Shown here piece after piece: positions 13,131-50,953 of a stretch of 64,000 nucleotides of DNA (position 1 is its first letter; each line of letters begins with the position of its first letter). Under the pieces are notes generated by a model. That model was not told the DNA's origin. It did not search any database and saw only the letters and a program-made list of their open reading frames with translations. The stretch is from Leptogorgia sarmentosa. Taxonomy: Eukaryota. Location: contig OZ210885.1 of assembly GCA_964658305.1 (NCBI GenBank), positions 5,022,001-5,086,000 on the forward strand, read 5' to 3'. The translations under genes were made by a program, and so were the position numbers.

Positions 13131-13136
13131 ACAATT

Positions 13137-25720: not shown

Positions 25721-25725
25721 TTGCA

Positions 25726-31044: not shown

Positions 31045-32429
31045 TCATCCAGCAACTAAAGTTCTAATTGTTTGCTGGTGTGCTGGCGTTAATAAAAGTT
31101 GAATATTTGGTGCAATCGTGACATATTCTCGTGAGAATAGTGGTTGTTTCTTCTTCACGCAGTCTGCCCGGCAATGAAAATAAACATTTCCTAACTTTCC
31201 TATTCTCTCTTCACCATCTTCATAGTACATCCGTCTCATTTTCGTGACGATTATGCTTCAGTCAATTGACACGACGCAAAATGCAATGAAATACTAATGA
31301 AGTATTAAAAATTGAGAATGACGTATTTTAATGCTGCCTCCTTTGACCTTTGTGCGTGTCAAATTACCAATGTAAATTAAATTATAAAAGGTAAAGTTTA
31401 TCCAAACTATGGAAATGACGATGCCTGATAATATTTTAGTATTCAAAGCAACGGATGGCTAGAGATTGAACCACTGGATTGAACACAAAATAGAGTTTAA
31501 AAGCACGTACCTGTCTCACACACTTCTTTTCGGCCGCTATTTTCGTGTTTTTATTGACTCGCCCTAGTCCACATCCTTTAAACCCCTGGTTTAAATCCCG
31601 GCATAATTTATATCGCGGGTGTTAAATCCCCGCCTAATACCCCGGTTTACAAAAACGTGTTGTTAATTCTACCGCCCTCCCGGGCATAGCACGTTGTTAA
31701 ATAGCGTTAAATCCCCGCTAAATTTTGTTAATTCCCCGCTATGTCCCGGGGGTGGGGGGGGGGGGGGGGCGTGGTGTCAATTGACTGAAGCATTACCAAG
31801 ATATGAGGAATTCTGTGCCTGCACCCGTGGCATGTTGTAACTCTCGGGTCACAGAATTGCAAAAGAGTTATTTCATACGAGCCTTCCGCAGGTTTTGGTC
31901 GAGGCGTCAAATGAGCGTTTTGTGTCGCAGTGGCTTCTTGTGTCAGGGTGTGGGGTCGAGGCATGAAAATATTGTTCTGCGCCGTAGAGACTTGATGTGT
32001 CGGGGCGTGAAAACAGCGTTTTGCGCCACACAGACTTGATGTATTGGGGCGGGAGGTGTATGTCGAGACGTGAAAACAGCATTTTGCCGTCGTATTCTCT
32101 CTTGCTTATCTCAAGGGCTTGTTTTAAAGTAATTTCTTCACTTTCATCAATAGGGACTTGATGTATCGGGGCTGGAGGTGTATGTCGAGGCGTGAAAACA
32201 GCGTTTTGCACCATAGGGACTTGATGTATCGGGGCGCGAGGTGTATGTCGAGGCGTGAAAACAGCGTTTTGCGCCATAGGGACTTGATGTGTCAAGGCGT
32301 GAAAACAGTGTTCTGCGTCGTATGGACTTGAAGTGTCGCGGCGCGAGGTGTGGCTCGAGGCGTAAAAATAGCGTTCTGTGCTGGAGGGATTCGGTTTATT
32401 TGAGCTCGAGGTGCTTCAGCAAACCCTTG
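31045..32429 (-). pseudogene. C-terminal relic of a MULE-like transposase gene (paralog of 60813-63870) with 63-bp tandem repeats
   Basis: C..RV..C.GC and LVIV..M.R.Y...GNVYFH...C..KKQPLF are shared with ORF 60813-62378; 21-aa repeats at ~31900-32390. Confidence 0.7.
31254..31792. mobile_element. MITE with 19-bp TIR and TTA TSD (PIF/Harbinger-like)
   Basis: tta|tgcttcagtcaattgacac ... gtgtcaattgactgaagca|tta; excision restores the frame PHILVIVTKMRR. Confidence 0.85.
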
Positions 32430-32726
32430 AGTAGGTTACCCCCCCCCCCCATATAGCAATGAAAGGGATGCCGACAATGACGTCACAATAGGTGAGAACA
32501 AAGGTTGACCATAGTGTTCACGTGGACAGTGCATGTATTCAAATGAAGCACGTGGACAGTGCATGTATGAGGTGTTCACGTGGACAGTGCATGTATTCAA
32601 ATGAAGCACGTGTTTACTGTATGGTACGAATTTTTTATTGAAATTTCGAGCGATAAGAATTAGGCAAAAAAAAAATTGAGATTGTACATTTTTATTTGAG
32701 CAATAATAAAATTTTAATTTTACATG
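32430..32726 (+). repeat. Left TIR of element 1
   Basis: Reverse complement of 48328-48556, with extra copies of cacgtggacagtgcatgtat. Confidence 0.95.
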
Positions 32727-33265
32727 TTATTAAAATGTTTTCGAAGTTTGTCTTTGAGATAGTCTTCATATGCTTTTAGTGTGTCCGGTTCCTTGCTCTT
32801 AAACCTTTCTTTTTTTCCTCGCACAAAATAATTAAAGGTAGGTGGGCTAGTAAAAAAGCACTCCGCAATACGTTCCAATGGATCCGCTTTAGGAATAAAC
32901 AAATCGCGTAGGATTTCGATTAATGACTGATTGTCCTGGTATACATGAAATATTGATTCAATCAACATAAGATCAGGGTTTTCTTCCAAGCTTAACAGGT
33001 GTTCAGTAAGATATTTTTCAAACGGAACATTTAGGATTTCAAGAACATGACTAAATTCACGCCAAACAATGCAACTAGCTTTTGCTTCTTCCATAGCATC
33101 AATACCATACATCTCCCATTTTTCAAACTCGTCCAACATCAAGCAGTCTTGGTCACGAATTTTACACCCGCAACAAAACAGGTTAAATTTACTTTCGATG
33201 ATATGAGCTATGACCTTGGCGTGTATCATTTCCATCAAATGAAGCTTTTTGCTTGAACCGTTCAT
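32720..33265 (-). CDS. CCGC-motif Maverick accessory protein (divergent paralog), 181 aa
   Basis: FCCGCKIRDQDCLML..EKWEMYG..AME aligns with ORFs 33741 and 58700. Confidence 0.75.
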   Translation of the reverse strand: MNGSSKKLHLMEMIHAKVIAHIIESKFNLFCCGCKIRDQDCLMLDEFEKWEMYGIDAMEEAKASCIVWREFSHVLEILNVPFEKYLTEHLLSLEENPDLMLIESIFHVYQDNQSLIEILRDLFIPKADPLERIAECFFTSPPTFNYFVRGKKERFKSKEPDTLKAYEDYLKDKLRKHFNNM

Positions 33266-33331
33266 TATGAAAACCAGTGCGTTCTAACAAAATAGTGTTC
33301 CTAACCATTTCAAATATACTTCAACGCTAAT

Positions 33332-33647
33332 GTACTTTAATGAGATTGCTGAGGCGTCACGGCATTGTTTGGTGTACGTACGCTGATTTAATGAGCTGAG
33401 GTGAACGTACGCGACGCCCACACAATTCAAATTTTGGCGCCATTTATTGTTTTGGTGTACGTACGCTGATTTAATGAGATTGCTGAGGCGTCACGGCATT
33501 GTTTGGTGTACGTACGCTGATTTAATGAGATTGCTGAGGCGTCACGGCATTGTTTGGTGTACGTACGCTGATTTAATGAGCTGAGGCGAACGTACGCGAA
33601 GCCCACCCAATTCAAATGTTGGCGCCAATGATTGATTGGTGTACGAT
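33332..33647 (+). repeat. Left sub-terminal repeat array (51-bp and ~83-bp units sharing a TACGTA core)
   Basis: Core ttggtgtacgtacgctgatttaatgag repeated; inverted copy at 47538-47868. Confidence 0.92.
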
Positions 33648-33740
33648 ATTTTAATTCATTTATTTGCATACTTGGTAAACTATAAGTAGAGCCGTTGTAT
33701 ACTGTTTTTTCATAGTACTGAGATTTTCGAAACGCGAAAA

Positions 33741-34214
33741 ATGAGTTCTTATAAGCATACGACGTTCGGAAGCAGAGTTTTTGCCGATGAAGTTTTTTAT
33801 GCGGACCATATGAAACTATGTAATTTGTTGGAGACGATTTTTGCTTGGAGTGTTTCTGATGAAGTTCACAAGCTTGATAAGGAGAAATGTTGTGGATGCG
33901 AGGTCGACCATCCCAGTCAGCGAAGGCATGATTGCCTTATGTTGACGATAGAAGAAAAATGGATGTCGTACGGTTTGGAGGCGATAGAGCGAGTGAATAG
34001 TAAGCGTATGACATGGCGGCTTTTTTTAGAAGCGTTGAGGATCTTGAAACTAAAATATCATAATAGCATTGTTGATCATTTAAGAGATCTCGAACGCGAT
34101 CCTGACTCTTCACTGGTGCATTCCTTAATGGAACTTCACCTTGACACCAACAATACCGAGTTTGAATCCGTTTTGAATTATTTATCGTACTGGAGAGAGG
34201 ATAGAGGTTGCTGA
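33741..34214 (+). CDS. CCGCxxDHPSQxxHxC putative zinc-binding Maverick protein, 157 aa
   Basis: Intact ORF with upstream TATA-like tataag; ortholog at 58700-59158. Confidence 0.8.
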   Translation: MSSYKHTTFGSRVFADEVFYADHMKLCNLLETIFAWSVSDEVHKLDKEKCCGCEVDHPSQRRHDCLMLTIEEKWMSYGLEAIERVNSKRMTWRLFLEALRILKLKYHNSIVDHLRDLERDPDSSLVHSLMELHLDTNNTEFESVLNYLSYWREDRGC

Positions 34215-34319
34215 TTAACTGGATTTATGAACACGTGATCGGAAGTGACGTATATGTAAGAAAAAAAGTATATAAGTGTGCATGCTTTTGAAAAATATTA
34301 GTTACATTTATCCTGAACG

Positions 34320-34901
34320 ATGAAGTGTTTGCACGGAGAGCCTGCTTCTTCCTCGACTACCCAGAACGGTTCATTCTGGTTCTGCGGTCAGAACTCGACA
34401 TGTCATTTCTTTTGCTCGGAAGAGGAGGGATATATGTTTGAAAAAGCCATTGATGCCTGGAGATCCACGAATCAACAGCAGCCATTATGTAGTGGACACG
34501 GTAAACTTGCGAAGATGCACGTGGTTAAAGATCTGATGAAAGAGAGCTATGGAAGACCGTATTTCGTGTGTTCCGATAAGAGGAATCCGTGTTCCTTTTC
34601 GGTGTGGGGCGATGTTCAACCAGTGATGCGGCCGAGCTGTAACCATGGGTTTCCATGTGCAACTCTTAAGGTCAAGAAAGAGGGCGTCAACAAGGGTCGT
34701 ATGTTCTTTACCTGTCCAAACGGGAAGGAGGACTCGTGTCGATATTTTGAATGGGTTCCCGAGGAAGGAGACGAGTCGCTGCAGCCGGTCAACTTCTTCA
34801 TGTCTGAACAACGTAGCCAGAGAAGCAGAGAGAGACGGAACTATTATAATAACTGCGTTGATAATTTAGCGCAAAGTTTTCAAACCATGAACATTAACTA
34901 G
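34320..34901 (+). CDS. Triple GRF-type zinc-finger protein, 193 aa
   Basis: CxH...GR.[YF]F.C...C.[FY]..W repeats (GRPYFVC, GRMFFTC); ortholog at 59891-60451. Confidence 0.85.
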   Translation: MKCLHGEPASSSTTQNGSFWFCGQNSTCHFFCSEEEGYMFEKAIDAWRSTNQQQPLCSGHGKLAKMHVVKDLMKESYGRPYFVCSDKRNPCSFSVWGDVQPVMRPSCNHGFPCATLKVKKEGVNKGRMFFTCPNGKEDSCRYFEWVPEEGDESLQPVNFFMSEQRSQRSRERRNYYNNCVDNLAQSFQTMNIN

Positions 34902-34988
34902 TTTGCTTATTACTTGTTTGTATTTCATATTTTAAATAAACACGTTTCTACTTTCATGTATTCATTTTTGTCTATGTTTGAGTGCAGA

Positions 34989-35339
34989 ATGGAGGTAATT
35001 TTGGATGAGCTTCAAAAAAATAATGTAGACATTGACATGAGAACGTTATCATATTATATAAACTATTTACTTGACGAGCACGAGTCTATGTATCGGTCAA
35101 TGGTTGCATGTTCTCCAGATTTCGCGACAGTTTTTCACGAGATCAACGTTGTTAATTTTGGTCGAGCTATGGCTTATTTAACCATGGTTTATTTCATGAA
35201 AGTTTCTGAAGATGAGATACGTAGTGCGGTGCAGTTAGTTGTTGCACCTTTAAGGAGCTTTGATTTTACGGAGTATAAGATCAAAGAAAGTTTTTTCGAC
35301 AAGATGACGTCTTTTTTTATTAAACTATTTCCGTTATAA
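34989..35339 (+). CDS. Putative Bcl-2-like protein, about 116 aa
   Basis: FATVFHEINVVNFGRAMAYL resembles the BH1 consensus (F..V..E.....NWGRIVA.L); small, helical-looking ORF. Confidence 0.5.
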   Translation: MEVILDELQKNNVDIDMRTLSYYINYLLDEHESMYRSMVACSPDFATVFHEINVVNFGRAMAYLTMVYFMKVSEDEIRSAVQLVVAPLRSFDFTEYKIKESFFDKMTSFFIKLFPL

Positions 35340-35391
35340 AATGTAGAAATGTGTAAGATGAAGTTTATTGCGTGTTTTGGTCGTGAACACG

Positions 35392-36033
35392 ATGGATGTA
35401 AGATTTAAGACGCCTGCGAACTTTTATATTTGCGGTCAGAGTCAAAGCGGAAAATCCTATTTGGTTCGTTCAATGTTACGAAACCTGGAGGAATTGTTTT
35501 TTCCTGTACCTTCTAAAGTAATATATTGCTATGGAGAGTTTCAAAAAGAATTTGAGGAGTTATCGGAGGCTTTACCGAACATACAGCTTGTTCAGGGATT
35601 TCCAAACGACTTGTATGATATGACATAAGCGCATGATAATTCACTTGTGATTTTGGACGACTTGATGTCGCAGTGCTCTAATGATCAACGCGTAGCTGAC
35701 CTTTTTACACGCGGTTCGCATCATCGTGGAATATCTGTCTTATTCCTTACTCAAAACCTATTTCCTCCTGGTAAGCTTTCGAGGACAATCAGCTTAAATT
35801 CACATTACATGCTGATATTTCGAAACCTACGAGATTCACTTGGCATTGCGACATTGGCACGCCAGATGTATCCCAAGAATGTCGGTTATTTGCTAGAATC
35901 ATTTAACGATGCTACAAAAAGACCCTATGGCTATCTTCTATTGGATCTTCATCAATTAACGCCGGAGGACATAAGATTGCGAACAAATATTCTACCTAAC
36001 GAGAGACAGATTGTTTACGTTAAACGAAACTGA
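35392..36033 (+). pseudogene. A32/FtsK-like DNA packaging ATPase with one in-frame stop (35626-35628)
   Basis: Walker A GQSQSGKS, Walker B LVILDDLM, SHH and TQNLF motifs; both ORF halves are in the same frame. Confidence 0.92.
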
Positions 36034-36150
36034 CTCAGACACAGAATTCAATGTTAACTTTTTATCCCAACATAATTTTATATTCCCAACAAAATGTAAA
36101 AGTTCTAACGAAATATATAAATTTAAATAACCTAAACTATGCGTTTTTTA

Positions 36151-37005
36151 TTACACACTTGTAACATCATAAATTTCACTACTTGAGCCCGAGGAGCTTT
36201 CAGCAATGTTTCCCACGGAGTTTACTGTTGCCATCACTATGTTTCTGTTTTCCTGGGTTCGACGGCGGCGGCAACGCGTACACGGTCTACATTTTGCGCA
36301 AAAAATTAGAACGAAAAGTGTCGCAAATGCTGTCGACAAGTATACTGCTAACTGTTGTGGATAACCGTCGCGTCGGTGTACCGTTACAGGGTTTTTGGGC
36401 TTTATGGACGATGAGGATAAAGGGAGGGAGGAGGAGCTCGAGCTGAATTTTGGGGGTTGGGGAGTATTTCGACTTTGGGTGTTGGGTACTGATCGGGTGT
36501 GAGGTTTGGAAGGTCGAGGAATATGGGTACTTGGTTTGGTGGAAGGTCTGCAGGGCGATGTTGTCGTTGGGGTGAGAGGTTTAGTGGGCGAGGGTCGAAG
36601 AGTGGTTTGGATTGTAGGTGGAGAGGTGGTGGAATGCTTGGACGGCGATGGGGTTTTCGAGGGGGAAAGGTATATGTTTGTCCTTATTTCGCAATCGCTC
36701 TTTACCGTTACGCTTATGAACACGCCACCGCAAACATGTGGATTTTCACGCACGTCGATCAACTTTAAGTTTGGATATGTTGTTATGATTTTGCTATCCA
36801 ATTTTGTAATGTTGTTTTGCCGCAAGTCCAAAACCTTTACGGCATCGCGATCTTTTTTTAATATGGGCACATTCTGCAGACCCACGTTGACGCAATCTAG
36901 TACGCCCACAAATTTCACCAGTTTACAGGATCGCTGCTGTGTTCCATAGATTGAGCTGTCAGTTAAGATAACAAGGAAAATAGAAAAGCGTACGAAGCCA
37001 ACCAT
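36151..37005 (-). CDS. Type I membrane protein with signal peptide, LRR, mucin-like stalk, TM helix and cytoplasmic tail, 284 aa
   Basis: MVGFVRFSIFLVIL signal; LRRNT-like C...DC...GL..VP; LDLRQNNITKL; LKLIDVRENP..C; P/T/S-rich stalk; TM LAVYLSTAFATLFVLIFC; ends in EIYDVTSV. Confidence 0.8.
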   Translation of the reverse strand: MVGFVRFSIFLVILTDSSIYGTQQRSCKLVKFVGVLDCVNVGLQNVPILKKDRDAVKVLDLRQNNITKLDSKIITTYPNLKLIDVRENPHVCGGVFISVTVKSDCEIRTNIYLSPSKTPSPSKHSTTSPPTIQTTLRPSPTKPLTPTTTSPCRPSTKPSTHIPRPSKPHTRSVPNTQSRNTPQPPKFSSSSSSLPLSSSSIKPKNPVTVHRRDGYPQQLAVYLSTAFATLFVLIFCAKCRPCTRCRRRRTQENRNIVMATVNSVGNIAESSSGSSSEIYDVTSV

Positions 37006-37192
37006 GATTTCGCTTGGTGTTCGTGCGATTTGTAAATGTGTATACAGAAAAGAATTTAAAATGTTTTTAAGTTCATTAAAACTGAAGTGTGTGTGTGTGT
37101 GTGTGACACGTGACATTTATTTTTTGTTATACTTCATCATTAATGTATATATAAAACTGTACTTTTATAAAATGCGGTTTATTTATCTCACG

Positions 37193-37498
37193 ATGTCAAA
37201 GAGGATGAGAGATAGTCAGAGAGTGAGAGATAGCCGAAAAGTTCTTATAGAACATGGACCGAGTGATCTCATATTATGCATTTGTGAATGCTGTTACAAC
37301 GTGTTAAAAGGGACGGTACCTTTGACAAAAAGGCAGAAGCAACATTTGTCGCGGTACAAGAAACATCTCAGAGGTTTGGCAAACAAAAAGATCTCACGCG
37401 TAAAAAAACGTCGTTTACTGACACAGCAAAAAGGTGGTGGTAATCTGTTAACAGCCCTTTTACCGCCTGTTTTAAGCGTATTGAGTAGCTTATTGTAA
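37193..37498 (+). CDS. Small basic conserved Maverick virion-module protein
   Basis: CECCYNVLKG.VPL...QKGGG.LL..LLPPVL; paralog in the relic at 2355-2537. Confidence 0.75.
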   Translation: MSKRMRDSQRVRDSRKVLIEHGPSDLILCICECCYNVLKGTVPLTKRQKQHLSRYKKHLRGLANKKISRVKKRRLLTQQKGGGNLLTALLPPVLSVLSSLL

Positions 37499-37500
37499 AA

Positions 37501-38235
37501 ATGAAAAGCGCTAAACGAATGATTCTTATTCCTGAGGATATGTTGAACAAATTTGAGCAAAAACAGAAACTAGAGACTCCTCCGATTGTTAGCAGCATGA
37601 TACAAAAAGATGCGGAAATGTCAAGGGTTCTCCATCGTGACGATTTAAATGATGATGTAAAAGAGAAATTATATCACGCAAATTTGGAACGTTATTTAAA
37701 TTTGAAAAGTCAAAAAGACAACACAACCCCAACGGTCCGATTGGCACCTGATAGCGAGATTGAAGATAAGGAGCCGGTTTCTCCCGAAGAAAAAGCGCAA
37801 CTTTCTGATACTGTTATCGTCGAAAGTATTCCGAAAACAAACCGGTCGAGAGCAGTAGCCCTTTTAAATCGTTTAAAAGCAAGACCAGATGTTATTTCTT
37901 GGGATGAAACGGGCAGAGTCAGCCTGGAGGGAAAAAGTGTTCCTCTATCTAATATTACCGATTTGATCAGCGATGCTGTTAGAGGGAGAAAAAATTTTAA
38001 TCCTGCTGGGTCAAGGCAATTTTTTCGTGCACTAGCGAAAATTAATATGCCTCGGGAACTGGTCCGGAATGCAAACAGATGGAATGAAGCGCAAATTGAC
38101 AGTCCACAGGGGAGGGATGTGACTGACAGCAGTCCTCAAATTACAACTCCTTCAAAGTATTTTCAAACACTGGTTGAGAGACATAATACCAAAAGCCCAC
38201 GGGGACAAACTCCAAGAGGCTGGCTTAAGTATTAA
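37501..38235 (+). CDS. Conserved Maverick protein of unknown function (PZ-like), 244 aa
   Basis: ISWDETG....G..VP.SNITDLI motif; paralog in the relic at 2537-3325. Confidence 0.75.
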   Translation: MKSAKRMILIPEDMLNKFEQKQKLETPPIVSSMIQKDAEMSRVLHRDDLNDDVKEKLYHANLERYLNLKSQKDNTTPTVRLAPDSEIEDKEPVSPEEKAQLSDTVIVESIPKTNRSRAVALLNRLKARPDVISWDETGRVSLEGKSVPLSNITDLISDAVRGRKNFNPAGSRQFFRALAKINMPRELVRNANRWNEAQIDSPQGRDVTDSSPQITTPSKYFQTLVERHNTKSPRGQTPRGWLKY

Positions 38236-38367
38236 CATGATAAATGATATGAATGTCGAATAAAGTGTGATTTTAATTTCCGTTCTTTTGTCATTATTTT
38301 TACGGGGGGCACTCAATAATAACAAACAACTGATATTTACAGAACATTTATTTATAAAACAAAAAGA

Positions 38368-38886
38368 TTACAAGATACGTTTTTTACTAGTTTGATTATT
38401 CTCTACATGCAACTGTTTATCTATTGCTGTAAAATTGCTTTTCACAAATTGTGATACTTTGGCGTCATTTAACATTGTATTATTATTAAAAATATGCACA
38501 ATTTTGCTTAGACTAAGCCCTCGGGATCTTTGACATAAATAAAACAAGCAATATTGTCCACACACATCTGACCAGATGCTTTGCAAAGTACGTTTGTTAT
38601 ATTCCCATTCAATATCGTGTCTATCTAAAAAATCTTTAAAAGTGTCCTTATAATATTCTAACGATCTTCCAAAGCTATCAAACATTTCGCCTTTATGTTC
38701 AGATGGAAAATAAAAAGCCACCCAATGCGTTCCCGGTTCGTTGCTAGGTGTATCTGTGTTGGCTACGATGGCACATGGAAACCTGTCAAGTGTTTTAGGT
38801 AATTTGTCGCTAGGAAACACCCCGCAAAACGTTCTCTTAGTAAAACGGTCTCGTTTCAACGCGCGAATAATCTGACCAGTGTTCAT
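38368..38886 (-). CDS. Adenain-like cysteine maturation protease
   Basis: GTHWVA, FDSFG and Q....DVCGQYC (His/Asp/Cys triad context). Confidence 0.92.
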   Translation of the reverse strand: MNTGQIIRALKRDRFTKRTFCGVFPSDKLPKTLDRFPCAIVANTDTPSNEPGTHWVAFYFPSEHKGEMFDSFGRSLEYYKDTFKDFLDRHDIEWEYNKRTLQSIWSDVCGQYCLFYLCQRSRGLSLSKIVHIFNNNTMLNDAKVSQFVKSNFTAIDKQLHVENNQTSKKRIL

Positions 38887-40219
38887 TTAGCCCACGTAAT
38901 CGTATATCACGTTTCTTTCGGCGTCAATTTGAATTAGGTTTTCGAATTCCCCGTAGCACAGGAGACTTACGGCTGCTGCTGGAGCGTTAGAGAACTTGAT
39001 GTCAACTGTCAGACTTCCCTTTTGCACGACGTTAAAATGGGGGGGATGATCCGCACATATCGGCTGATAGGTCGAAAGCGTAAACAGCGTAGCCATTGGG
39101 AAACTCGGTCCTGTCGATATCATTTCCAGTGTTGAAAAGCCACTTTCCAGTTCCAGTGAACTGTGTACAGAAAGCTTCAATATATCTAGGGTTAGCTCCG
39201 AATGACAGCGGTAACGGCTTGAACGGTATGTCTTCCCCGTTTAGGGACACTCCAACAGACGAAACGTTGAAATGTTGAAAATTGTACGGATTTTTCTTGT
39301 ACGCACCGTTAAACGCTGTGCTTTCTACTAAGCCAAAGACAAACGATTTCGGTACGAGCCCATTAAAAACGTTATCTTTTCTAAGCGATGGATTTCCTGC
39401 CGGAACGATAAAACTTTTACATTCGACACGTCGAATAGGATAAACTGCTGGACCTTTTTTCAAAGCAACTTCGTGAGCAATCGAGACGCTAGGGGCCACT
39501 TTCATTTTTCGTACTTTTAGTTGGGCATCGATTAGCTTCACTCTGTAATCCGCATCGTCTTCAGAGGCCATCAGACAAAACTCGCTACTATTCCGACTCA
39601 TGATAACTTTAAGATCGACAAAACTTAACATGAGACGTTCTGACATGAATGCGTCACAAAATACAGGTCCCACCATCTCGAGAACCCCACTTTGACTGCT
39701 GTATGTATATCTTGTTTTCAGCCCGAGATTAGCATCGGCATCCCTTGCAACTGTAGGGTCAGCCACATCCATTTTTCCAGCCGTATCTTTGTAGAACATA
39801 GAGGCGGTGAGTTGTGATTTCTTTGCCGCTGGGCCGTAGTTTAGGAGGGTTTCCAAGTACGCACGGTACGAATAAGTCCCCATAGCTTGTGTGACTTGTT
39901 TTTCCTTCAGAAACACATCGACTTGTTTGAACAGACTGTGCAAAAAGTTGTTCACGATTCCAACCTTTTCGTCTTGGTCCAAATTCGCTCCATCTGCCTT
40001 TGTTACTTTTGCTCTTATCACCAACATTGTTTTAGATAGATCGACATAGTCTTCTGTACCAGGAGACAGAAATGTGATAGGGCCCCCGTCAGACACGCTG
40101 GACACCGGCTGATGGTCCATCCAGTAACCTTTTTCCAAACTGACCTGTGTTGGAGGCACAGAAAATAAATCCAGCTCGCTCTTGCTACACTCTTGCGAAT
40201 TGTGGTGGACAAAATTCAT
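38887..40219 (-). pseudogene. Major capsid protein (double jelly-roll) with a +1 frameshift in the G7 run at 39039-39045
   Basis: SELDLFSVPPTQ, NNFLHSLFKQVDV, YRAYLETLLNY, KNPYNFQHF; removing one base joins GSSP to HFNVVQKG...YGEFENLIQID. Confidence 0.9.
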
Positions 40220-40221
40220 GT

Positions 40222-40677
40222 TTAACCAAATATGTCTTCAGGAGATGTTTTTCGTCTCTTGGTCTGCTTGTTTCTGGCAGGAGGTTGCGTTGCCTTTCTC
40301 TTTTTATTAGTTTTTCCAGCCTGTTTTGCACGTTTCCCACTTCCTGTTTGAACGTAAGTCTTTGCCTGCTGCACAACTTTCTCCTTCGCTTTGTTTGCTG
40401 CCTCCTTGGCACGAGCTTTTGCGGCCTCTTTAACATTTTTACCAGCCAAGACATCGCCCACGAAATTCTTACCACTCTTCATTGCGATTTTGCCAAGGGA
40501 CTTTGCTCCACTCTTGACCATCGGCATAACCGCTCTTGCGAAGCTACGAAAAAGACCGCCAAGCCCAAATCCCATCTGTCCGTGACCAACCTGCCAGGGA
40601 CTACCTCTGAACACAGACATCTTATGTCCTTGTTGTTGATTAAGATAGTAATTCACGTACGGATTGTTCTGAGTCAT
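40222..40677 (-). CDS. Basic, amphipathic virion core or membrane-penetration-type Maverick protein
   Basis: Y..YY..Q, G.GLGGLFRS amphipathic helix, QTGSG and a Lys/Arg-rich tail; lies between mCP and MCP. Confidence 0.75.
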   Translation of the reverse strand: MTQNNPYVNYYLNQQQGHKMSVFRGSPWQVGHGQMGFGLGGLFRSFARAVMPMVKSGAKSLGKIAMKSGKNFVGDVLAGKNVKEAAKARAKEAANKAKEKVVQQAKTYVQTGSGKRAKQAGKTNKKRKATQPPARNKQTKRRKTSPEDIFG

Positions 40678-40679
40678 TT

Positions 40680-41435
40680 TTACGAAAAGTAAGATGGGTT
40701 CCGTTGCTTAAAGTGTAGTGTAATGATCGCCTTTCCGCGTTCAAATGGCACAGGGTCTCCCGTGTCACTCCTTAAAAGAACTTCCACGTCCTCAAATGAT
40801 TTTTTCTGAACAGGCACATACTGAATGTTTGTAAACGTTTTAGCAATGACGTCACCGAACTTTCCCTGGACGGGAATGCTTTTCAATAGCCGTACGCTTG
40901 TATCTCCAACAACTTGCGGTTCGACAATATCGCAATACACATAAATGGTTGACACAACCGCCAAATCTACCACGTACGGACCTACGGTTGTTTTCGTGAT
41001 ATACGTATCTTTTCCGCCAAACCCTAAGATAATAGACAATTTGCCAACTAAAAAAACCTGATGCCCATTCTTCAACTGTACTGTCACTTTTCCATTAAGA
41101 GAATTGTACGTTAATTTGATGTTATCGTTGACGGCTCGGGCTAATGCTTTATTTATGGCTTTTACAAGATCTTGGGCAGATTGATAGTAACCGTAATCAA
41201 TTATGACCGGTTGAAACAAGCCACTTTTGTCCGCTTGATAAATATGTGTATCGAACCCGTCCTGTAATGTGTACCACGAATTAGGGTAAGAAATCGAGTA
41301 GAGCCCGACTTCCCAATTATCCACCAAATTAATGCTCTGTGGTAATTTCACACGATAACTTGTCGTTTTGTTATCTGGAAAAACCTCAGGGGATGCATTA
41401 CTAGGAAGCGTAAGGTAGAAATGTGTTCCGCTCAT
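40680..41435 (-). CDS. Minor capsid (penton) protein
   Basis: FYLTLPSNAS, WEVGL..ISYP, IYVYCDIVEPQ.VGD, LHFK. Confidence 0.88.
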   Translation of the reverse strand: MSGTHFYLTLPSNASPEVFPDNKTTSYRVKLPQSINLVDNWEVGLYSISYPNSWYTLQDGFDTHIYQADKSGLFQPVIIDYGYYQSAQDLVKAINKALARAVNDNIKLTYNSLNGKVTVQLKNGHQVFLVGKLSIILGFGGKDTYITKTTVGPYVVDLAVVSTIYVYCDIVEPQVVGDTSVRLLKSIPVQGKFGDVIAKTFTNIQYVPVQKKSFEDVEVLLRSDTGDPVPFERGKAIITLHFKQRNPSYFS

Positions 41436-41480
41436 TGCAAATCATAAAACAAAATGACAACGAAACAACACAGTCAAGGT

Positions 41481-42569
41481 TTAAATATTATTTATTTCAG
41501 ATGCGGGTACCCACGAATTGAATTTGTTTGGGTATCCCGACCATTTTACAAGATATTGTACATTATTGCCTCTGCCGCGCTTTTTCAAAACTTTTTCTAT
41601 TTTATAAACATCGTCCTGTTTAATAACCTTTTGTAATTCCTTATCGTAAAATGTCCCTTTTAGTTCCTCACCATCATAATCTTTCAATTTATATACGGGT
41701 GGATCGCGAGGTATTTGTTTGCTAATGGTAAAAATTTCTTTTGAAAAATTTGGCAAGTAGCCTTTAGAAAATTGGCGTTTAATCTTACTTATCCGAACCG
41801 TCTCACCTACTTTAAATTTAAACTTTACATTTTTCACTACATCATGACTGTCATATAAAGTATGCCAAACTTTTTGTTCGTTCTCAACAGTAACATCTGC
41901 TGGTTTTGTTTTAATACTTCGATGTACACTATGATTGTACGAATGCACTAAATCGGGTAACATGTCAATATATCTCATTGTTTTCTTCGCGGTAAAGTAA
42001 CGCCACATTCTAGTCTTCAGAGTACGAATCAACCGTTCCACAATGGAGGCTTTAGTTTCGTTATACGTATTGTACAGATTTATATCTTTTTCTTTCATCA
42101 ATGCTTGAAAATGTTTGTTGAAAAATTCAGTTCCTTGATCTGTCATGACCTTTTCAGGTTTGCGACCAGTCGATAATATCAATTTGAAAGCTTCGACCAA
42201 GGAGAGACCGGTTTTATTTTTCAATGGAATTACCCATGCATACTTTGAAAACACGTCCACGCACACTAAAAGATATCTGTAACCATCGTTAAACTTTTGC
42301 AGAGATTGCATGTCAGCTAAGTCTAATTGCCATTGCTCGTCAATGCCCCCGACAATGACACGATTTCTTCTAAAATTGCGACGAACAGGCTTATGTAAAG
42401 TGTATGTGTCCTGTTTCATTAGCCATTCTTTAATTTGCTGGCGCGTTATTTTGAATTTTCCCTCCCTTTTTGCGTCACGATACAAACGGTCCACCCCGCC
42501 AAAGCCTCCTGATCGTTTGGCATCGTAATAAACACTCGATAGATAACTGTCTACGCTATCCATGGTCAT
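41481..42569 (-). CDS. Retroviral-like (rve) integrase with C-terminal chromodomain, intact
   Basis: DDE residues in WQLDLADM, TDQGTEF and VERLIRTLK; chromodomain IEKVL...YLVKW.GY...NSW. Confidence 0.95.
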   Translation of the reverse strand: MTMDSVDSYLSSVYYDAKRSGGFGGVDRLYRDAKREGKFKITRQQIKEWLMKQDTYTLHKPVRRNFRRNRVIVGGIDEQWQLDLADMQSLQKFNDGYRYLLVCVDVFSKYAWVIPLKNKTGLSLVEAFKLILSTGRKPEKVMTDQGTEFFNKHFQALMKEKDINLYNTYNETKASIVERLIRTLKTRMWRYFTAKKTMRYIDMLPDLVHSYNHSVHRSIKTKPADVTVENEQKVWHTLYDSHDVVKNVKFKFKVGETVRISKIKRQFSKGYLPNFSKEIFTISKQIPRDPPVYKLKDYDGEELKGTFYDKELQKVIKQDDVYKIEKVLKKRGRGNNVQYLVKWSGYPNKFNSWVPASEINNI

Positions 42570-42619
42570 CTAACACCGTCGCATATAAAATGGAGAAAAT
42601 ATCCAATAATTTGTTTCTT

Positions 42620-42874
42620 TTATCCTTCGACATTTTCAACGCTTTCATTGTCAACGTGCACTGTGTCAACTGTCTTGCTGTCAATCGATTTTAAGGCATG
42701 CATATTTTCAATCGGCGCATAATTCTTAAGAGTTTTGCTATTGTAACCCATTTGCAAATGTCCCTCAAGATTGAGGTCGTTGCGACCAAAACTTATACCT
42801 ATTCGAAACATTTTTTGTCTGTGATGATTTTTGTTGATCTTTGGGCTTTGTCGCTTGCTAATAAGTTGACCCAT
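42620..42874 (-). CDS. Small 84-aa ORF with N-myristoylation consensus
   Basis: Starts MGQLISK (MGxxxSK), directly downstream of a duplicated promoter-like block. Confidence 0.5.
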   Translation of the reverse strand: MGQLISKRQSPKINKNHHRQKMFRIGISFGRNDLNLEGHLQMGYNSKTLKNYAPIENMHALKSIDSKTVDTVHVDNESVENVEG

Positions 42875-43089
42875 TATCTCTGACCGTGTACACCTTGCTA
42901 ATGAGCGTCGTGAACAATATGCACGGGTATGTATAGGCATTTTGAAATATTAAATTTAATATCGTGACCAAGCGAACTTGCATAAAAGGCGGTTCTTATC
43001 TTAAATACACAATAGTAAACTTAAAATAATTTTCAAACAACAAAAATTTTTGAGAATAATTTATTAACATTTTTAAAAAATATTTACAG

Positions 43090-43545
43090 TTAAATTGAGT
43101 GCCAAAGGCACCCGCAGTAAGTAATTTCCCCGCACTCTATAGTGAAATTAAAAGTTAATTGTTCGAATGTTTCTCTTACAGTCTCTACACATTTCTTGTG
43201 AACCTCTGTCTCGCAACATCTCGTTTTTTGTAATTCTTCGGTGTCGACCTTTCTTTCCAGGCACAGCCAGCACAGTTCTTTGTCCGGGAATATCGTCCGA
43301 CAATAGCCACATTTTACGGTTCCTGGCGTTGTACTTCGTGCCGCCCACTCTCGAAAACATTTTGTATGTGCCTTTTGATGGCAGCAACACATGTTCATTG
43401 CTTTTTGCTCGTTCCGTTTGATATCTTCATAGCAGAAGTAGCACTGCCCTTGGTCTTCTTTGTTTTCGGATAATATCCCGAACAGCGAAATGATCGTTCT
43501 GTACATCCAATCTTCTGGCTCGGGCAAAACACCTATCTTCTCCAT
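43090..43545 (-). CDS. Tandem RING-finger protein (first finger C4HC3/RING-CH-like), putative E3 ligase
   Basis: CYFC...CCC....HTKC...W........CGYC, followed by CWLC...CC....HKKC...CG...YCGC. Confidence 0.72.
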   Translation of the reverse strand: MEKIGVLPEPEDWMYRTIISLFGILSENKEDQGQCYFCYEDIKRNEQKAMNMCCCHQKAHTKCFREWAARSTTPGTVKCGYCRTIFPDKELCWLCLERKVDTEELQKTRCCETEVHKKCVETVRETFEQLTFNFTIECGEITYCGCLWHSI

Positions 43546-43739
43546 TTCGATGTGTAATTGAGGTCGTTTGCTAATGTTATCTCTGACCGTGTACACAATG
43601 TTAATATGCGTCGTGGACAATATGCTCGGGTATATATATAGACATTTGATTTCGTGACCAAGCGAACTCGCATAAAAGGCGGTTCTTAACGGACACATTA
43701 AACAGGTACCCTGGCCTAAGGGGCAAGTGGACATTCAAT

Positions 43740-44069
43740 ATGAATACTGAAGAAAGAAAAAGCAGAGCAGCGGAGAGATCCCGAAGAAATAGGCTCAAGG
43801 CCAAAACGGAGATTGGACGACTAAGGGCTCTAGAGCGATATTTTATTACTTTAGACCCTACGATTATCGCAGAGTTCGGGAAAACGTACCTCGGCGTGGT
43901 CCCAGAGATCACACCACGGCAAGGAAAAACGAAAGGGGCCGAAAGGGTCCGAAGAAATCGACTTCAGGTAAAGAATGAGTTGGCACGACTTAGGGCGCTG
44001 GAGCGATACCTAATCAGGCTCTACCCTACGAATGTCGCTGATTTCGTCGAAAACCCTCCATTGGACTAA
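43740..44069 (+). CDS. Protein with two bZIP-basic-like repeats, 109 aa
   Basis: KSRAAERSRRNRLKAKTEIGRLRALERY and KTKGAERVRRNRLQVKNELARLRALERY. Confidence 0.6.
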   Translation: MNTEERKSRAAERSRRNRLKAKTEIGRLRALERYFITLDPTIIAEFGKTYLGVVPEITPRQGKTKGAERVRRNRLQVKNELARLRALERYLIRLYPTNVADFVENPPLD

Positions 44070-44160
44070 CACGGTTCTTTTTAAGAACCACCAAATTTGA
44101 CAAAACAATATAAATGAAGAAGATTTTTTTATTCATCAACCTTACGAATAAATACACAAA

Positions 44161-47100
44161 TCAATACCCATACGGAATTGTTTTATAGTCGTTATTAATT
44201 ACACGTTTATTATAGACAATTTGATAGTCCTTTTTCTGTCGTTTGGTAACTATATCTTTTGAGTGTTTATCTCTCGTGATTTTAAATGGAATATCGACTG
44301 TCGTACGTCCTTCAACATTACAAATTGCCTGAATATTCTTTATGTAACAGATGCGCTTTTTGCAAAATACGTCGCAAAACGTCCAGTTGATGAAATACTA
44401 GCATTTAAGGAAGACCTTAAGGTAGGACAGTGCATTTTACCAGTCCAAAGTAGGATGAAAGATCTTGAAAGTTCTCAGTTATTATCTGAGGATGACCGAT
44501 AACTGAAGGTGTGGACTTATTGCAATGGGGGTAGAGGCTTGTAAAGTCGAAATATTTTATTTGTTCGTCGTCCTGACATTCGTGAAATAATTTCGTGGCG
44601 TTTGTACGACCTCCATAAAAAGCATCCCGGGGCTCGAGAGGATCGACCACTTGAAAATTATCAAAATAAGCCCGCATGTCGGCGTCAGTTTTGAGTTGCT
44701 GGTTTATTTGACACTCCCAAATCTCAACAACATTAAAATTTAGAGATTTCAGATACATAGTTTTGTCTAATGTAGCCTAATACAGTTCATGCGTAGTTTT
44801 ACTGTTAACAGTGTTTACGGTATCCCTTGCGTAACATTTCAGACACCCATGCCAAAAACACCCTTGAACCTCGTAGACGGTGTTCGTTTCTTCGTGAAAA
44901 CCATCCAAACGATAATTCCCGACCCGTTTCTCCCCTGAATTTCGAGTATGTTGTATGTTTATATTATTCCGCTCGGCTGTAAACGAAAGCCACTTAAGTG
45001 CGAGGATAGAATGTTTATCAGTAGGACGGTAACCGTTTGGCGGTATAATGGCTATCGTACCCTCTCGTAAAAACTTTTTTCTAAAAACAAGATTGCACGC
45101 AGAAGCAATGGTCAAACACTTTTCAAACGGGTCTACATCGGTAACGCTACGAAACAGTTCGCGAAACTCCATGCAACAGCGCCGTAAAATATCAACATCT
45201 GATCGACAATACTTTAATATTTCGTCTTGAAAGTTAAAAACGTAATTGTTTTGCTGTAAATTTTTGTGCCAACTTAGGAACTTTTCTCTTTCGCTGGGGC
45301 TCATACCGTCGGGGTGGTAATATGGGCTTGAAGGTATTGGCCCAATGTACGTTTGATTCTCTGTTCTGTTAAAAAGATGTGGAAAATATCCTTTGGCAAG
45401 TTCAGGTATCCCAAATGTCTTTGGAAAGTTTGCCAATTTCATCGGAATAAAACATAGGGAGTCAATAAATTTGATTTTAAGCATCGGAACGTAAATCGTG
45501 AGAAGTTTTGCACCACGCATAATAACCTCCGGAACAATCCCGTTTTTATGCAAATACTGTAAAATAAAATAACCGTCATAGCCTTGGAAATTATGAGCCA
45601 TGACAATACTGCCCGCATTTTCATTCTGAAACAACCATTCACAAAAGTCGTCTTTTGTATTTCCACCTTGAAAAACATGTTCGTTCCCAGCCTCATCGTG
45701 AACAACGCAGAGATTTGGTGTGTGCGTGCCATTCTCTTGAATGCACTCAAAATCAAAAAATAATAATTGATTATAAGCGCTTCCGTCGTTATTAGTTTCA
45801 TCCGCTTCGCTATCACATAAATCGTCGGACTCGGCTGTTTCGTTCATTTTTGTCTTCTCGGGTTGCATGTAGCAGCGATGTGTCTCATCGACATATTCCC
45901 GACACACTATGCACCGAACAAGTCCGCAGTTATGCGATTCAGGCCTCGCTAAATTCCTTTTTACAACCCTGCCACAATGTTTACACTTAATAAGAGACGC
46001 ACAAATTGATTTCCCATTTCCTACAGTTTCCTTATGCCTGTTATATAACACTCCTGACTTTTAAAATTCCGCATGCAATCTTTACATTCAACCCATGAAA
46101 TGATAGGACAGTTTTGAAAACGACATGCCTTACACGAATCACCGCATAAATGATCGGTATTTTTGTCGTAACCTTTTTTGCAAGTGTGACAAAACATTTT
46201 CCTAGCAAAAAACGCTGGCATACTTGTGATAACATCGTAATGATTATCGTGAGCATACAAATAAATACGTTTTTCTCTATCAGGGCCGGAAAAAATGATC
46301 GAGTTTTGATGTTCCTTAGAAACAATATTAATTTGGTATTCCGCCAAATGTGTTTGAAACTGTTTAATCTCACTCAAACCGCATTGCACTAAAGGAACAC
46401 TGCATTTCTCGTGCAGCTCATACGCTCGTCGTGACTGCAACGTACTGATTTTCGAGTTGATTATTGTTCTATACTGTTCGTCATTTTCAAGTTTTGCAAT
46501 AGCCACAACAAGTGCCCTAGCTAAACATATATCATCGGTGTTTTGAATGCGAACAATTGATCGTTTGTTTGTCAAGTATTTATCTAAATTAATCTCTCGG
46601 CGCTTAGTTCCAGTCCCCCCGTTGGGCATTTCAACATGCACTATGTTGACACTCACTGAATCATTAAGTTTGAATTCGTGATTGGATTGAACGACTCGCT
46701 CAATTTCGGCTAAAACTCGTTCGGATGTTAATCTCCCTCGTGGCATGAAAGGTAAAGATATAGGATATTCTAGCTGAGGCGTACGCAAAACAAAGCGAAC
46801 TTGATCATGCATCGGCACGTCCCTTGTGACTGTATCAAGTAAACTCTGAAATATCTCGTGAAGGTGATTGTGCTGCTCCGATAGTTCCAAATTGGAAAGT
46901 GTATTGGTAAATTGAATCGCGTAATCTAAGCCTGTTGTCGCAAACTTTTGAATTCGAACCTGCCTCAAATGTTTTACAGTAATACTATTACTATTATCGT
47001 CTCTTACTTCATCACTTGTTCCAGCACCGTCGTCATTCATCTCTTCAAATCTCCTTTTCTCGCCATAACCATCTGGATGGTTTGGATGATAGGATCATCG

Positions 47101-47333
47101 TTCAGCCAGTCTTCGATAAACTTTTCTCTCTGTGTAGGTGTCCAGGAATCGCTTATACCGGGCTCTAGCCCCAGCGATTCATTTTCGATGCTCCAGTCCA
47201 ACAATCTCACAAATATCTTTAGTCTTTGGTCAAACACAGCATTTTGCTCTTCTTCAGTTAGAGTATATCTTTCCTCTAGGTTTTTGAGCTGGGCCAGCGT
47301 AGAGCATTGTTTTATCATCCCAGAAAGATCCAT
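44161..47333 (-). pseudogene. Protein-primed DNA polymerase B of element 1: two frameshifts, one stop, and a deletion of palm motifs B and C
   Basis: Exonuclease motifs FFDFEC, AHNFQGYDG and YCRSDV; nuclease-like insert YEVQGCFWHG; YGGRT; DFTSLYP; sequence then jumps from KCTVLP to the C-terminus KTIPYGY (stop 44161-44163). Confidence 0.93.
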
Positions 47334-47537
47334 TACTTGAACAAAAAAAAAGTTCTTATTTCTGAGGTCTGAAAATGCATGCCACATGGAAAAAAAAAGC
47401 TTACCTAGTATTCTTCCTGAACAATCTTGTCGAAAATAGCAACTTGAAAAGGTTTACTTGCAAAAACACAAACTTGAATGCAGGAAAAATTCGAACACGT
47501 ATTTTTATAGCCAGCGAATGCGTGGGCGCTTATAGGT

Positions 47538-47868
47538 CATTAAATCAGCGTACGTACACCAAAACAATAAATGGCGCTAACATTTGAATTGGGTGGGCTT
47601 CGCGTACGTTCGCCTCAGCTCATTAAATCAGCGTACGTACACCAAACAATGCCGTGACGCCTCAGCAATCTCATTAAATCAGCGTACGTACACCAAAACA
47701 ATAAATGGCGCCAAAATTTGAATTGTGTGGGCGTCGCGTACGTTCACCTCCGCTCATTAAATCAGCGTACGTACACCATAACAATGTCGTGACGCCTCAG
47801 CAATCTCATTAAATCAGCGTACGTACACCAAACAATGCCGTAACGCCTGAGCAATCTCATTAAAGTAC
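47538..47868 (-). repeat. Right sub-terminal repeat array, inverted copy of 33332-33647
   Basis: Five copies of cattaaatcagcgtacgtacacca with the same two spacer types as the left array. Confidence 0.92.
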
Positions 47869-47953
47869 CATACGTTAACGTTGAAATATAGAAGTGTGCA
47901 ATCAGATATACTTCAACTCTTCCACAGTGAGCAAGTCATATAAAAGTTCAATA

Positions 47954-48334
47954 ATGACATATCTTTTCAACCAAATATACTTGGACGACATTAAAAACCT
48001 CAAACACCTCAGCGAAACAGAATTAATGGAAGCTGTAACAACCGAATTTATCCTCAACGAATCATACGACGACGGAAAAAAAGTAATGAAAAAAAAGTTA
48101 CAGGATAACACCATATATAAAATGGACCGGCAGAAACTATGGCTGCTCATCATTGAAGCGTTCAAGTTAATGGATTTTGAAAAACCTTCCAACGAACTTC
48201 AATCATTATATGAAAAAACATTAAATCTGCCAAGATCGAAGCAACAGAACATCAATTCAAATATTAACAGAACAATTACTTTTGAAAACCTAATACATTA
48301 TCTAACATGTATCTATAAATTAAAATACATGTAA
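47954..48334 (+). CDS. Hypothetical terminal protein-coding ORF, 126 aa
   Basis: Open ORF between the inner array and the TIR; its stop lies in the TIR; no recognisable motif. Confidence 0.55.
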   Translation: MTYLFNQIYLDDIKNLKHLSETELMEAVTTEFILNESYDDGKKVMKKKLQDNTIYKMDRQKLWLLIIEAFKLMDFEKPSNELQSLYEKTLNLPRSKQQNINSNINRTITFENLIHYLTCIYKLKYM

Positions 48335-48556
48335 AATTTTATTATTGCTCAAATAAAAATGTACAATCTCAATTTTTTTTTTGCCTAATTCTTATCGCTC
48401 GAAATTTCAATAAAAAATTCGTACCATACAGTAAACACGTGCTTCATTTGAATACATGCACTGTCCACGTGAACACTATGGTCAACCTTTGTTTTTACCT
48501 ATTGTGACGTCATTGTCGGCATCCCTTTCATTGCTATATGGGGGGGGTAACCTACT
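48328..48556 (-). repeat. Right TIR of element 1
   Basis: Ends ...ggggtaacctact; reverse complement of the left TIR. Confidence 0.95.
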
Positions 48557-50289
48557 AGTTTTGGACTTGAAAGTGAAATGCTTTTTCAAATAGCAAATGA
48601 AGGTGGTATAAATATGTATGCAAGTTCACTGTAGCAGTCTGAAAACTTTATGTTTAACATGCAAATGAAATTTGCATAAACCAAATAAATTAGAATATAT
48701 TCACATATAATTTTAAGATATTTATCACTTCCATGTGTGACATACTGGATACTGCTTTACAAAATACACTTACATCCTGTCTGCATACTGCATTCAAACA
48801 TGATTCCGTTGCGGATGTCAATACATTTATAAACTATAGTGGTCCTACATCATACATAACCATACGTGACGAATTGGCCAGACAGGAACATTTTAAATTG
48901 CTAAATCCTGAAATTTACATTGCCCATATTGGCCGCCATATTGATTTCCGTGCAATGGTGCGATTGGGACCGAACTTAATAATTAACTATTTCTGTCGAT
49001 AAATTCTTTCGTCTCGTAATTGTTTTTAGAATCACTTTCATATATCTTTACACCCCAAAGATAATCACTAGGATTAGTCAGGATTGCCAATACAATAAAC
49101 AATAGGGTTAGAACTGGGGTTGGTTTTAGATCAGGATTAGAGATTAAGTTTCAGGATTTTTAATATGGAAATGACCTCTTAATCCCAGCTATGACCAGTG
49201 GCTATAACTTTATTTGCCGAAAAGTGGAAATTGAATGTTACTATTCATTTATGGAAACAACTTTGTCTGTCCGCAGGCTAATATGGCGAAAACACGACTT
49301 TTTAGAATATGAAATTGACTTTGTTTCTTTCAATGATAATAAATACGATTAAATCACTGATATGCTTTTCATATCCAACGATACATCATTTAATAAACTT
49401 CCTAGAAGCAACTGCATATCCCGGAAGGTCTTACAAAGCGTCCGTTTACAGCAAACAAGGGTGACCCTGATGGCTGAATGCTGATTAAATAGTTCAATAT
49501 GAGTTATATGACAATATCAATGAATAGTTGACAGTTATTTAGTAAGGTAAAGAAATAATACTTCCATGGGCAATATGTGCAATATATAATTCATTAATTA
49601 TTATCTGTTTATACTTTTCAATAAGCTGAGTATGGTATAACTATATTAAACAACTTGATTAATTGACCAATTATGAATTGCAGTATTGAAATACTTGCTG
49701 ATTTGCATTTACTTGCTTTGCTATTTATTAATAGCTGCTCATTAACTGACATTTTTTGATTTTTATGTTCATTAACTCACATAAAAGAATATTAACTCCT
49801 AATAACATTTTGCTTCCTTGTATTATTGCTGAAGTCCAAACATCTGTACAATATAAACAATGTTATTCAGAGTTACTATTTTTTGTATTTTATTAGAATA
49901 GTAGTGGGTCTCCAGGCTAGGAGATCATGGGAATATTCAAATTTGTCAATTACTGTCCATAAGCACCCCAGGTCACTGTGGTGTGGCCCCCAATTCAGCC
50001 CCTAATGTCGCAAGGAATTTTCTTTGAAAATCCCCAATGTCGCCAAATGTCGCCTATTGTCGCAGCGACATTAGGCGACATTGGCCCCCAAAGTAGGCCT
50101 TGCTTTGGAAAGGGTTTCAGCGATAAAAATCAAAGATGCCTACATTCAACTTCATTCAGATGCAAACGACATCGAAAAGTGGAAAGCTGTTATTTATACG
50201 GAACAAAGACAACGATTAAAACAGGAAATCTTTCATTTGCTTTGAGTATAAAGTTCCGCAGTTTTAAGAGTGCATTATCAGTTGACGAC

Positions 50290-50463: not shown

Positions 50464-50566
50464 CATCATCAATGTTTGTTCATATACAACAGACGAAGAA
50501 ATTGGGTATAAGCCTGGGACATTATCGGACCCTAGACGTTAAAGCAAACTCTCAAGTCCTAATCAT

Positions 50567-50953
50567 TTGCTACCAACTATTGATCGCGTAAACATGTCGT
50601 GGAGAGACTTTGTCACTCGCTGGGTAGCAAACCGAGGAGATCGTCTTGTTGTTATGGATTTGGTAGGCGAACTTATACGTGCCAATTCCGTTCCGGCAAC
50701 GTTGGTGGACAACGCTACGTTGCATACCATTTTGATAAAACAAGCATTGCTGGAAACCTTAAACACTGCAGTACTGCCCAACGCTCCGCAAGGAAGAACC
50801 TTCACTTACCATATGAATGTCAAGGAAGAAATGATGTGGAGTTTTGGTACAAAAATACAACAGCATATAAGGGAATTGCAAAAAGAAACAGGCGTGCATC
50901 TGGACCATTACCATAAACTAAAGATCGAAAACATGGACATAGATTGTTGTTAA
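50567..50953 (+). CDS. Maverick-associated hypothetical protein (start uncertain)
   Basis: Shares KQALLETLNTAVLP with the relic at 3430-3700; convergent with pPolB. Confidence 0.55.
   Translation: MLPTIDRVNMSWRDFVTRWVANRGDRLVVMDLVGELIRANSVPATLVDNATLHTILIKQALLETLNTAVLPNAPQGRTFTYHMNVKEEMMWSFGTKIQQHIRELQKETGVHLDHYHKLKIENMDIDCC

Follow-up and report, generated by a model that had tools for sequence, protein, structure and literature searches.

Organisation of the element

The element described here occupies positions 32430-48556 (16,127 bp) of a 64,000-nucleotide stretch of the Leptogorgia sarmentosa genome (assembly GCA_964658305.1, contig OZ210885.1, positions 5,022,001 to 5,086,000 of the forward strand); this whole stretch is called the window below. 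The assignment of the element as adintovirus-like, made in an earlier note from the letters alone, is confirmed by our analysis: with its genes for protein-primed DNA polymerase B (pPolB), rve integrase, adenain and packaging ATPase, and with its terminal inverted repeats (TIRs), it is recognisable from its sequence as a Maverick/Polinton of adintovirus type.

The core genes follow the order ATPase-PM-PZ converging on INT-mCP-PW-MCP-PRO. Pfam matches comprise rve with a chromodomain, adenain (Peptidase_C5), DNA_pol_B_2 and P-loop; none of the 16 element proteins matched PHROGs. On the plus strand lie the gene of the packaging ATPase (35392-36033), with P-loop matches below the cut-off and 75-90% identity to a sister ATPase, and the conserved core open reading frames (ORFs) at the PM (37193-37498) and PZ (37501-38235) positions, which have relatives in 14 and 6, respectively, of the 81 loci that we fetched. 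The minus-strand module encodes the rve integrase with chromodomain (41481-42569, open, 362 aa; PF00665, E 9e-12, and PF00385), the minor capsid (penton) position protein mCP (40680-41435, open, 251 aa; 45/81 loci), the basic/amphipathic PW-position protein (40222-40677, open, 151 aa; 30/81 loci), the major capsid protein MCP (38887-40219) and the adenain-type cysteine protease (38368-38886, open, 172 aa; PF00770 above cut-off). The names PM, PZ, PW, mCP and MCP denote synteny and wide conservation in the 81 loci rather than folds, and the capsid proteins had no sequence match in PDB. The MCP, assigned by size, position and conservation, has 2117 homologues, the closest of which, among the matches listed, are 70-88% identical and about 442 aa long; those homologues that bear a name among the 120 matches listed are octocoral proteins. 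In a quick-method, midpoint-rooted tree built from sequences other than named adintovirus references, the MCP of the window falls inside a clade that holds octocoral proteins, which makes a cnidarian host likely.

The pPolB gene (44161-47387, minus strand) is broken. Its product matches PF03175 (E 6e-24 and 3e-8) and retains the OTU-like Cys/His, Exo I-III and PolA motifs, as well as, between the exonuclease and polymerase parts, a GCFWHGC motif, which we take to be Vsr-like. A separate terminal-protein gene at 47040-47387, of the kind described for a coral polinton in PMC11161782, was considered and judged less likely; in the second Maverick of the window, that part is continuous with pPolB sequence in one frame.

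Both ends of the element are exact, with 5'-AGTAGG at 32430 on the plus strand and at 48556 on the minus strand, and TIRs with an AG-type end motif are a hallmark of Mavericks/Polintons. The left TIR (32430-32716, plus strand, 287 bp) contains E-box and CRE-type (cAMP response element) motifs and an extra 58-bp unit that the right TIR (48332-48556, minus strand, 225 bp) does not have; 231 of the 235 aligned bases of the two are identical. The right end is independently backed by contigs from sequencing runs (X1 and X8), which track the right flank and diverge exactly at 48556/48557. The right flank itself (48557-50100) is covered by deep contigs in four runs, which fits insertion into a repeat.

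Nested inside the TIRs is a second pair of inverted repeats: an array of 51/134-bp units rich in ACGT/TGACG (33332-33660) and its inverted partner at 47520-47875, about 90% identical to each other (314/348 aligned). ACGT occurs 18-22 times per kb in these arrays vs. 3.7 in the element interior, and TGACG motifs are likewise abundant. Between each inner array and its TIR there is a single outward-facing gene, the reading frame of which stops at the edge of the TIR, an AATAAA-type signal lying just past it. This layout suggests that each inner array is likely a bidirectional promoter/enhancer.

State of the copy and of its family

The claim of the earlier note that the genome is complete stands as regards its full span, exact ends and TIRs, but the copy is not intact. 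Three of the nine core genes carry six lesions altogether. In pPolB, frame breaks near 47090 and 46050 are accompanied by a stop codon at 44777-44779, and about 1 kb has been lost near 44330-44420; this copy has neither the PolB (KxxxNSxxGK) nor the PolC (YxDTDS) motif, both of which are present in the second Maverick of the window. The ATPase gene is interrupted by a stop at 35626-35628, and the MCP gene changes frame near 39040, within a homopolymer run. A 6-bp target-site duplication was not found, the six bases outside either end being mismatched. Thus, neither of the two features by which Mavericks have been classed as intact, uninterrupted core ORFs and the 6-bp duplication (PMC8097293), is present. 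With neither a PolB nor a PolC motif and with interrupted reading frames of ATPase and capsid, the copy, judged by its sequence, is defective: full-span, but neither self-replicating nor self-packaging. Use of its TIRs in trans is still conceivable.

We considered contigs of 19 sequencing runs and aligned those of four in detail over 30 bins; contig depths were not used as copy numbers. The element stretch or part of it is present in 14 of the 19 runs (five studies). Each of the four aligned runs covers 30/30 bins, many pieces being 95-99+% identical, and none of the four, at full depth, has either of the stops or the capsid frame break. The pPolB of one contig is longer than that of the focal copy by about 1 kb. 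The comparison is thus informative on four of the six lesions, i.e., those other than the two pPolB frame breaks. Since many such nearly identical pieces are free of the stops and the capsid break, the family is young and multi-copy, and the lesions absent from the sisters are private to this copy, one of them possibly being an assembly slip. The existence of an intact copy, for which the earlier note proposed a search, is likely, although no contig piece in the four aligned runs spanned a whole element. Searches of IMG/VR with a single MCP query and with the GRF zinc-finger protein described below gave no match, a query with an MCP alignment gave one distant locus only (45%), and a scan of genome contigs yielded one short contaminant-like contig only. 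The ratio of nonsynonymous to synonymous differences (pN/pS) of core genes between sisters is 0.07-0.30.

Accessory genes

Nine accessory ORFs are open in this copy, at about the places where the earlier note had put them; the contrast with the six core lesions is not significant (P 0.10). The accessory stretches contain 11 ATG-initiated ORFs of at least 84 aa and five of at least 150 aa, whereas 200 base shuffles gave on average 0.63 and 0.02, respectively, in a test that is generous, the stretches having been picked around the ORFs. Eight of the nine have homologues, and divergence is third-position-biased in all seven tested. Gene neighbourhoods are preserved as well: one sister contig (L002) carries the Bcl-2-like, ATPase, leucine-rich repeat (LRR), PM and PZ genes in the order of the focal element, and in two others (L005 and L039) the terminal-type and Met-Gly genes are still grouped with INT. 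Pairwise pN/pS values are 0.30 for GRF, 0.41-0.44 for Met-Gly, 0.48-0.55 for the second CCGC gene, 0.59 for the first CCGC gene against the second, 0.49 for the Bcl-2-like gene (46 codons only), 0.59 for LRR and 0.63-0.66 for the terminal ORF. All 95% intervals lie below 1 and speak for past constraint only, as synonymous sites are saturated and low-identity alignments lower the ratio; the RING gene was outside this DNA-level set. The earlier note had named a lack of conservation among sister copies, together with a lack of expression, as the finding that would count against it; on the first of these points, conservation is what we observe. On these sequence comparisons the accessory ORFs are real genes of the lineage.

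Three of them form one family. CCGC paralogue 1 (32720-33265, minus strand, 181 aa) points outward, its stop codon abutting the TIR; paralogue 2 (33741-34214, plus strand, 157 aa) has a conserved CxGC...RxxxCLM pattern. The earlier note recognised this pair but treated the terminal ORF (47954-48334, plus strand, 126 aa), which also points outward with its stop abutting the TIR, as separate; it is a cysteine-less third member (hhalign 92%, E 5.5e-7). The family had no PDB sequence match, and its best Atlas score (0.88, unnamed eukaryotic clusters) serves as a lead only.

The tandem GRF zinc-finger protein (34320-34901, plus strand, 193 aa) matches PF06839 (E 2e-19; 69.7 bits vs. a cut-off of 25.9) in two stretches and the GRF domain of NEIL3 (E 4.5e-16). 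It resembles the NEIL3/APE2 fingers, GRF fingers being described as binders of single-stranded DNA (PMC9266487). It seems somewhat more probable than the opposite that this protein binds displaced single-stranded DNA during replication, and such a role would fit better than host manipulation. Directly downstream lies the gene of a compact protein of 116 aa from its likely start (34989-35339, plus strand). One 185-aa homologue (P0169) joins a GRF domain and Bcl-2-like sequence, echoing this adjacency, and may be a read-through artefact.

This compact protein carries a BH1-like NFGR motif and has no transmembrane tail. In the family alignment, the positions of BH1 are occupied by N in 63, F in 66, G in 77 and R in 74 of 82 sequences, in agreement with the canonical NWGR-type motif. 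Single-sequence folding of the ORF was poor (predicted local distance difference test, pLDDT, 52), and the structure search with that model was uninformative. A Bcl-2 fold is predicted as probable; whether the protein is anti-apoptotic, binding host BH3 proteins and thereby delaying cell death, is an even question. One Bcl-2-like cluster has 14 members, and the contigs of six of them equal in length contigs with members of the nearest MCP cluster, which is an indirect sign of linkage.

The remaining host-directed candidates are a type I membrane-like protein and a tandem RING-like protein. The former (36151-37005, minus strand, 284 aa) has a signal peptide, a short LRR module, a Ser/Thr-rich stalk, a transmembrane (TM) helix and an acidic tail; the predicted topology is probably correct, and its function as a cell-surface decoy or adhesion molecule is proposed tentatively. 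The latter (43090-43545, minus strand, 151 aa from the likely start) matches zf-RING_2 below cut-off (E 4e-4), and its two Cys/His clusters are conserved in a cross-brace pattern across five aligned rows; it would, with modest preference, be an E3 ligase or a Zn-binding adaptor. The GRF, LRR-TM, RING and Bcl-2-like labels of the earlier note hold.

Its other two labels fared less well. The small protein encoded at 42620-42874 (minus strand, 84 aa) has a conserved Met-Gly start, Gly2 and a central 40-residue block being shared by two sister contigs; myristoylation is suggested by this start and by nothing beyond it. Longer annotated starts of the Met-Gly and RING ORFs were rejected: the N-terminal extensions fall in duplicated upstream DNA, and the agreement among homologues does not begin before the later Met. 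This duplicated segment of about 125 bp (42874-42998 and 43577-43688) is likely a promoter shared in kind by both genes. The ORF at 43740-44069 (plus strand, 109 aa), labelled bZIP-like and taken as evidence of a transcription function, encodes a basic helical orphan of two repeats of about 45 aa with a basic stretch; compared with the bZIP consensus, it has no invariant Asn and a zipper of at most about one heptad. It had no Pfam match, no relative in the 81 loci and an Atlas best score of 0.82 (unnamed), and the label was abandoned.

Neighbouring elements

A second, more decayed Maverick lies at 50543-60700. It has its own pPolB pieces, with the PolB and PolC motifs, and one of its ends, with AGTAGG, lies at 60700; the opposite end was not located. 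It also carries a CCGC paralogue (58700-59158), a GRF paralogue (59891-60451) and a LINE-like reverse transcriptase insertion (53790-56735). Between its CCGC and GRF genes are 24 copies of a 26-bp ACGT-containing unit (59198-59820), an array that may be the counterpart of the inner arrays of the focal element. Remnants of a third Maverick (2170-3600) include PM- and PZ-position genes 52-53% identical, and a stretch of 49 bp that matches the ORF at 50594-50953. The left flank of the focal element contains a 44/63/107-bp tandem array (31955-32378) and, farther away, a broken ORF (30088-30838), presumably tyrosine-recombinase-like; positions 9700-29500, judged by resemblance, are presumably a mosaic in which decayed pieces of LINE, BEL/Pao, DIRS-like and piggyBac-like type alternate.

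Nature of the element

We hold it to be very probable that the locus is a defective integrated Maverick/Polinton copy of adintovirus type from a young multi-copy family, the accessory ORFs of which are real lineage genes likely serving the viral life cycle. Termini, gene order, lesions, sister copies and protein-level conservation are observed here, and the life cycle is drawn from the literature on the family. In intact relatives, the rve integrase would insert the element, the protein-primed pPolB would replicate the linear DNA starting at the TIRs, and the ATPase would package it into capsids matured by the protease. The focal copy would be a recent dead provirus. Its accessory genes would be divided into a replication helper (GRF), host-directed proteins (Bcl-2 fold, RING, LRR-TM, perhaps Met-Gly) and early genes, namely the three CCGC paralogues driven by the repeat arrays.

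A provirus that is intact, infectious and equipped to manipulate its host, its lesions being assembly errors, would agree with the lack of four of the six lesions in near-identical copies, the homopolymer position of one, and the 98% identity of the TIRs. However, two in-frame stops and the loss of two catalytic motifs with about 1 kb of DNA are untypical of assembly slips, the missing target-site duplication points to rearrangement after insertion, and the neighbourhood is full of decayed elements; such a provirus is highly improbable. The toolkit reading of the earlier note is in this respect overstated: a virus-like nature of such elements has already been published, but this copy is defective, the bZIP protein is unsupported, and GRF fits replication better. 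Still less probable is an origin of the accessory ORFs by chance or decay, with labels that read too much into them. The orphan at 43740-44069, with no relative in the 81 loci, no Pfam match and an Atlas score of only 0.82, and the six of nine accessory ORFs that match no Pfam family at E < 0.01 could be taken that way, but the homologues, the third-position bias and the excess over base shuffles refute it, at the level of sequence, for eight of the nine.

A stronger competitor, in our view still unlikely, is a family that lives only as an intragenomic transposon and keeps its accessory ORFs for replication, transcription or passenger reasons, without any action on the host. The ssDNA-binding type of the GRF fingers is in accord with it, as are the scarcity of a TM anchor in the Bcl-2-like family (hydrophobic tail in 5 of 69 long members) and the absence of LxCxE from the eight accessory proteins scanned (GRF was outside the scan). 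Against it, the capsid, penton-position, protease and ATPase genes are strongly constrained between sisters (pN/pS 0.07-0.28), and neither the signal-peptide/LRR/TM protein nor the Bcl-2-fold protein has an obvious role in transposition. Going beyond the defective-copy reading that we prefer, one may picture a cnidarian adintovirus lineage still circulating as virions, with a conserved anti-host kit new to Mavericks. To this kit would belong a tandem RING ligase, an anchor-less Bcl-2 fold of only 116 aa, a membrane protein that is myristoylated, and a surface decoy of TLR-like LRR-mucin build. Diverging paralogues of the new helical CCGC family would occupy two "effector slots", which are exchangeable and bounded by an inner inverted enhancer array on one side and a TIR on the other, like the variable ends of poxvirus genomes. 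We regard this picture as rather doubtful.

The infectious nature of animal Mavericks has so far been argued mostly from conserved capsid genes. Family-wide accessory genes that make sense only against a host cell, such as a death inhibitor, a surface decoy and a ubiquitin ligase, would constitute a second line of evidence. The proteins are small and testable, and of use for studies of cnidarian innate immunity. Being broken, the locus does not offer a working virus genome; its value is that it draws attention to the family and to four or five protein families that are uncharacterised.

Comparison with known systems

Starrett et al. 2021 (PMC8502044) treat such elements as viruses, with homologues of Bcl2 and IAP, Oncoid, Cupiennin, GasderminX and "Adintoc" unknowns, and map coral contigs of Stylophora, Corynactis and Rhodactis. 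The focal element shares with adintoviruses the inverted terminal repeats, OTU-PolB, rve integrase with chromodomain, FtsK-like ATPase, adenain and the hexon/penton positions; it differs in the lack of the Oncoid motif LxCxE in the proteins scanned and in being defective. GRF, RING, LRR and bZIP are absent from the readable supplement text of that paper; they may be contained in its Fig. S1 and File S2, perhaps among the "Adintoc" unknowns. A weak PF03175 score and the Vsr-like motif are only suggestive of the Beta/divergent-PolB type of adintovirus, marked by a divergent OTU-PolB, GasderminX and Cupiennin, as the closest one. Polintons of a marine nematode and of marine molluscs have a VSR-containing pPolB2 (Jeong et al., bioRxiv 10.1101/2023.08.22.554363), and the focal element shares the Vsr-like motif with them.

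Vertebrate Mavericks have a mean size of 16.9 kb and most copies are degraded (Barreat and Katzourakis 2021, PMC8097293). Similar to the focal element are their size (16.1 kb here), the range of TIR length, accessory regions flanking the core, and the converging modules atp-pm-pz and int-mcp-pw-Mcp-pro. In contrast to them, the focal pPolB lies on the integrase strand at the far end and not ahead of the ATPase, the LRR-TM gene is inserted between ATPase and PM, and the end motif is AGTAGG instead of (AGT)2 or (AG)3. Endogenous polintoviruses are abundant in stony corals; their core genes are expressed, and their accessory genes are distributed patchily (Stephens et al. 2024, PMC11131425). They have in common with our element the cnidarian host and the possession of accessory genes. 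The terms apopto-, ubiquitin, GRF and leucine-rich do not occur in the main text of that paper, and its Suppl. Fig. S10 may hold such genes. Literature word searches, which are brittle to spelling, found no GRF accessory in Mavericks/Polintons, and bioRxiv 2024.03.25.586562 has no GRF, Bcl, LRR or coral passage in its accessible text.

With viral Bcl-2 proteins (poxvirus F1L, FPV039 and DPV022, herpesvirus BALF1/A9, adenovirus E1B-19K) the compact protein shares the predicted helical bundle and the BH1-like N-F-G-R, but it has only 116 aa and 8-20% identity, and its family usually does not have a TM tail. The reading of such elements as viruses with Bcl2/IAP accessories (PMC8502044) and the polintoviruses of corals (PMC11131425) are thus already published; what the focal element adds to them is the nesting of one inverted-repeat pair within another, together with several accessory families that are uncharacterised.
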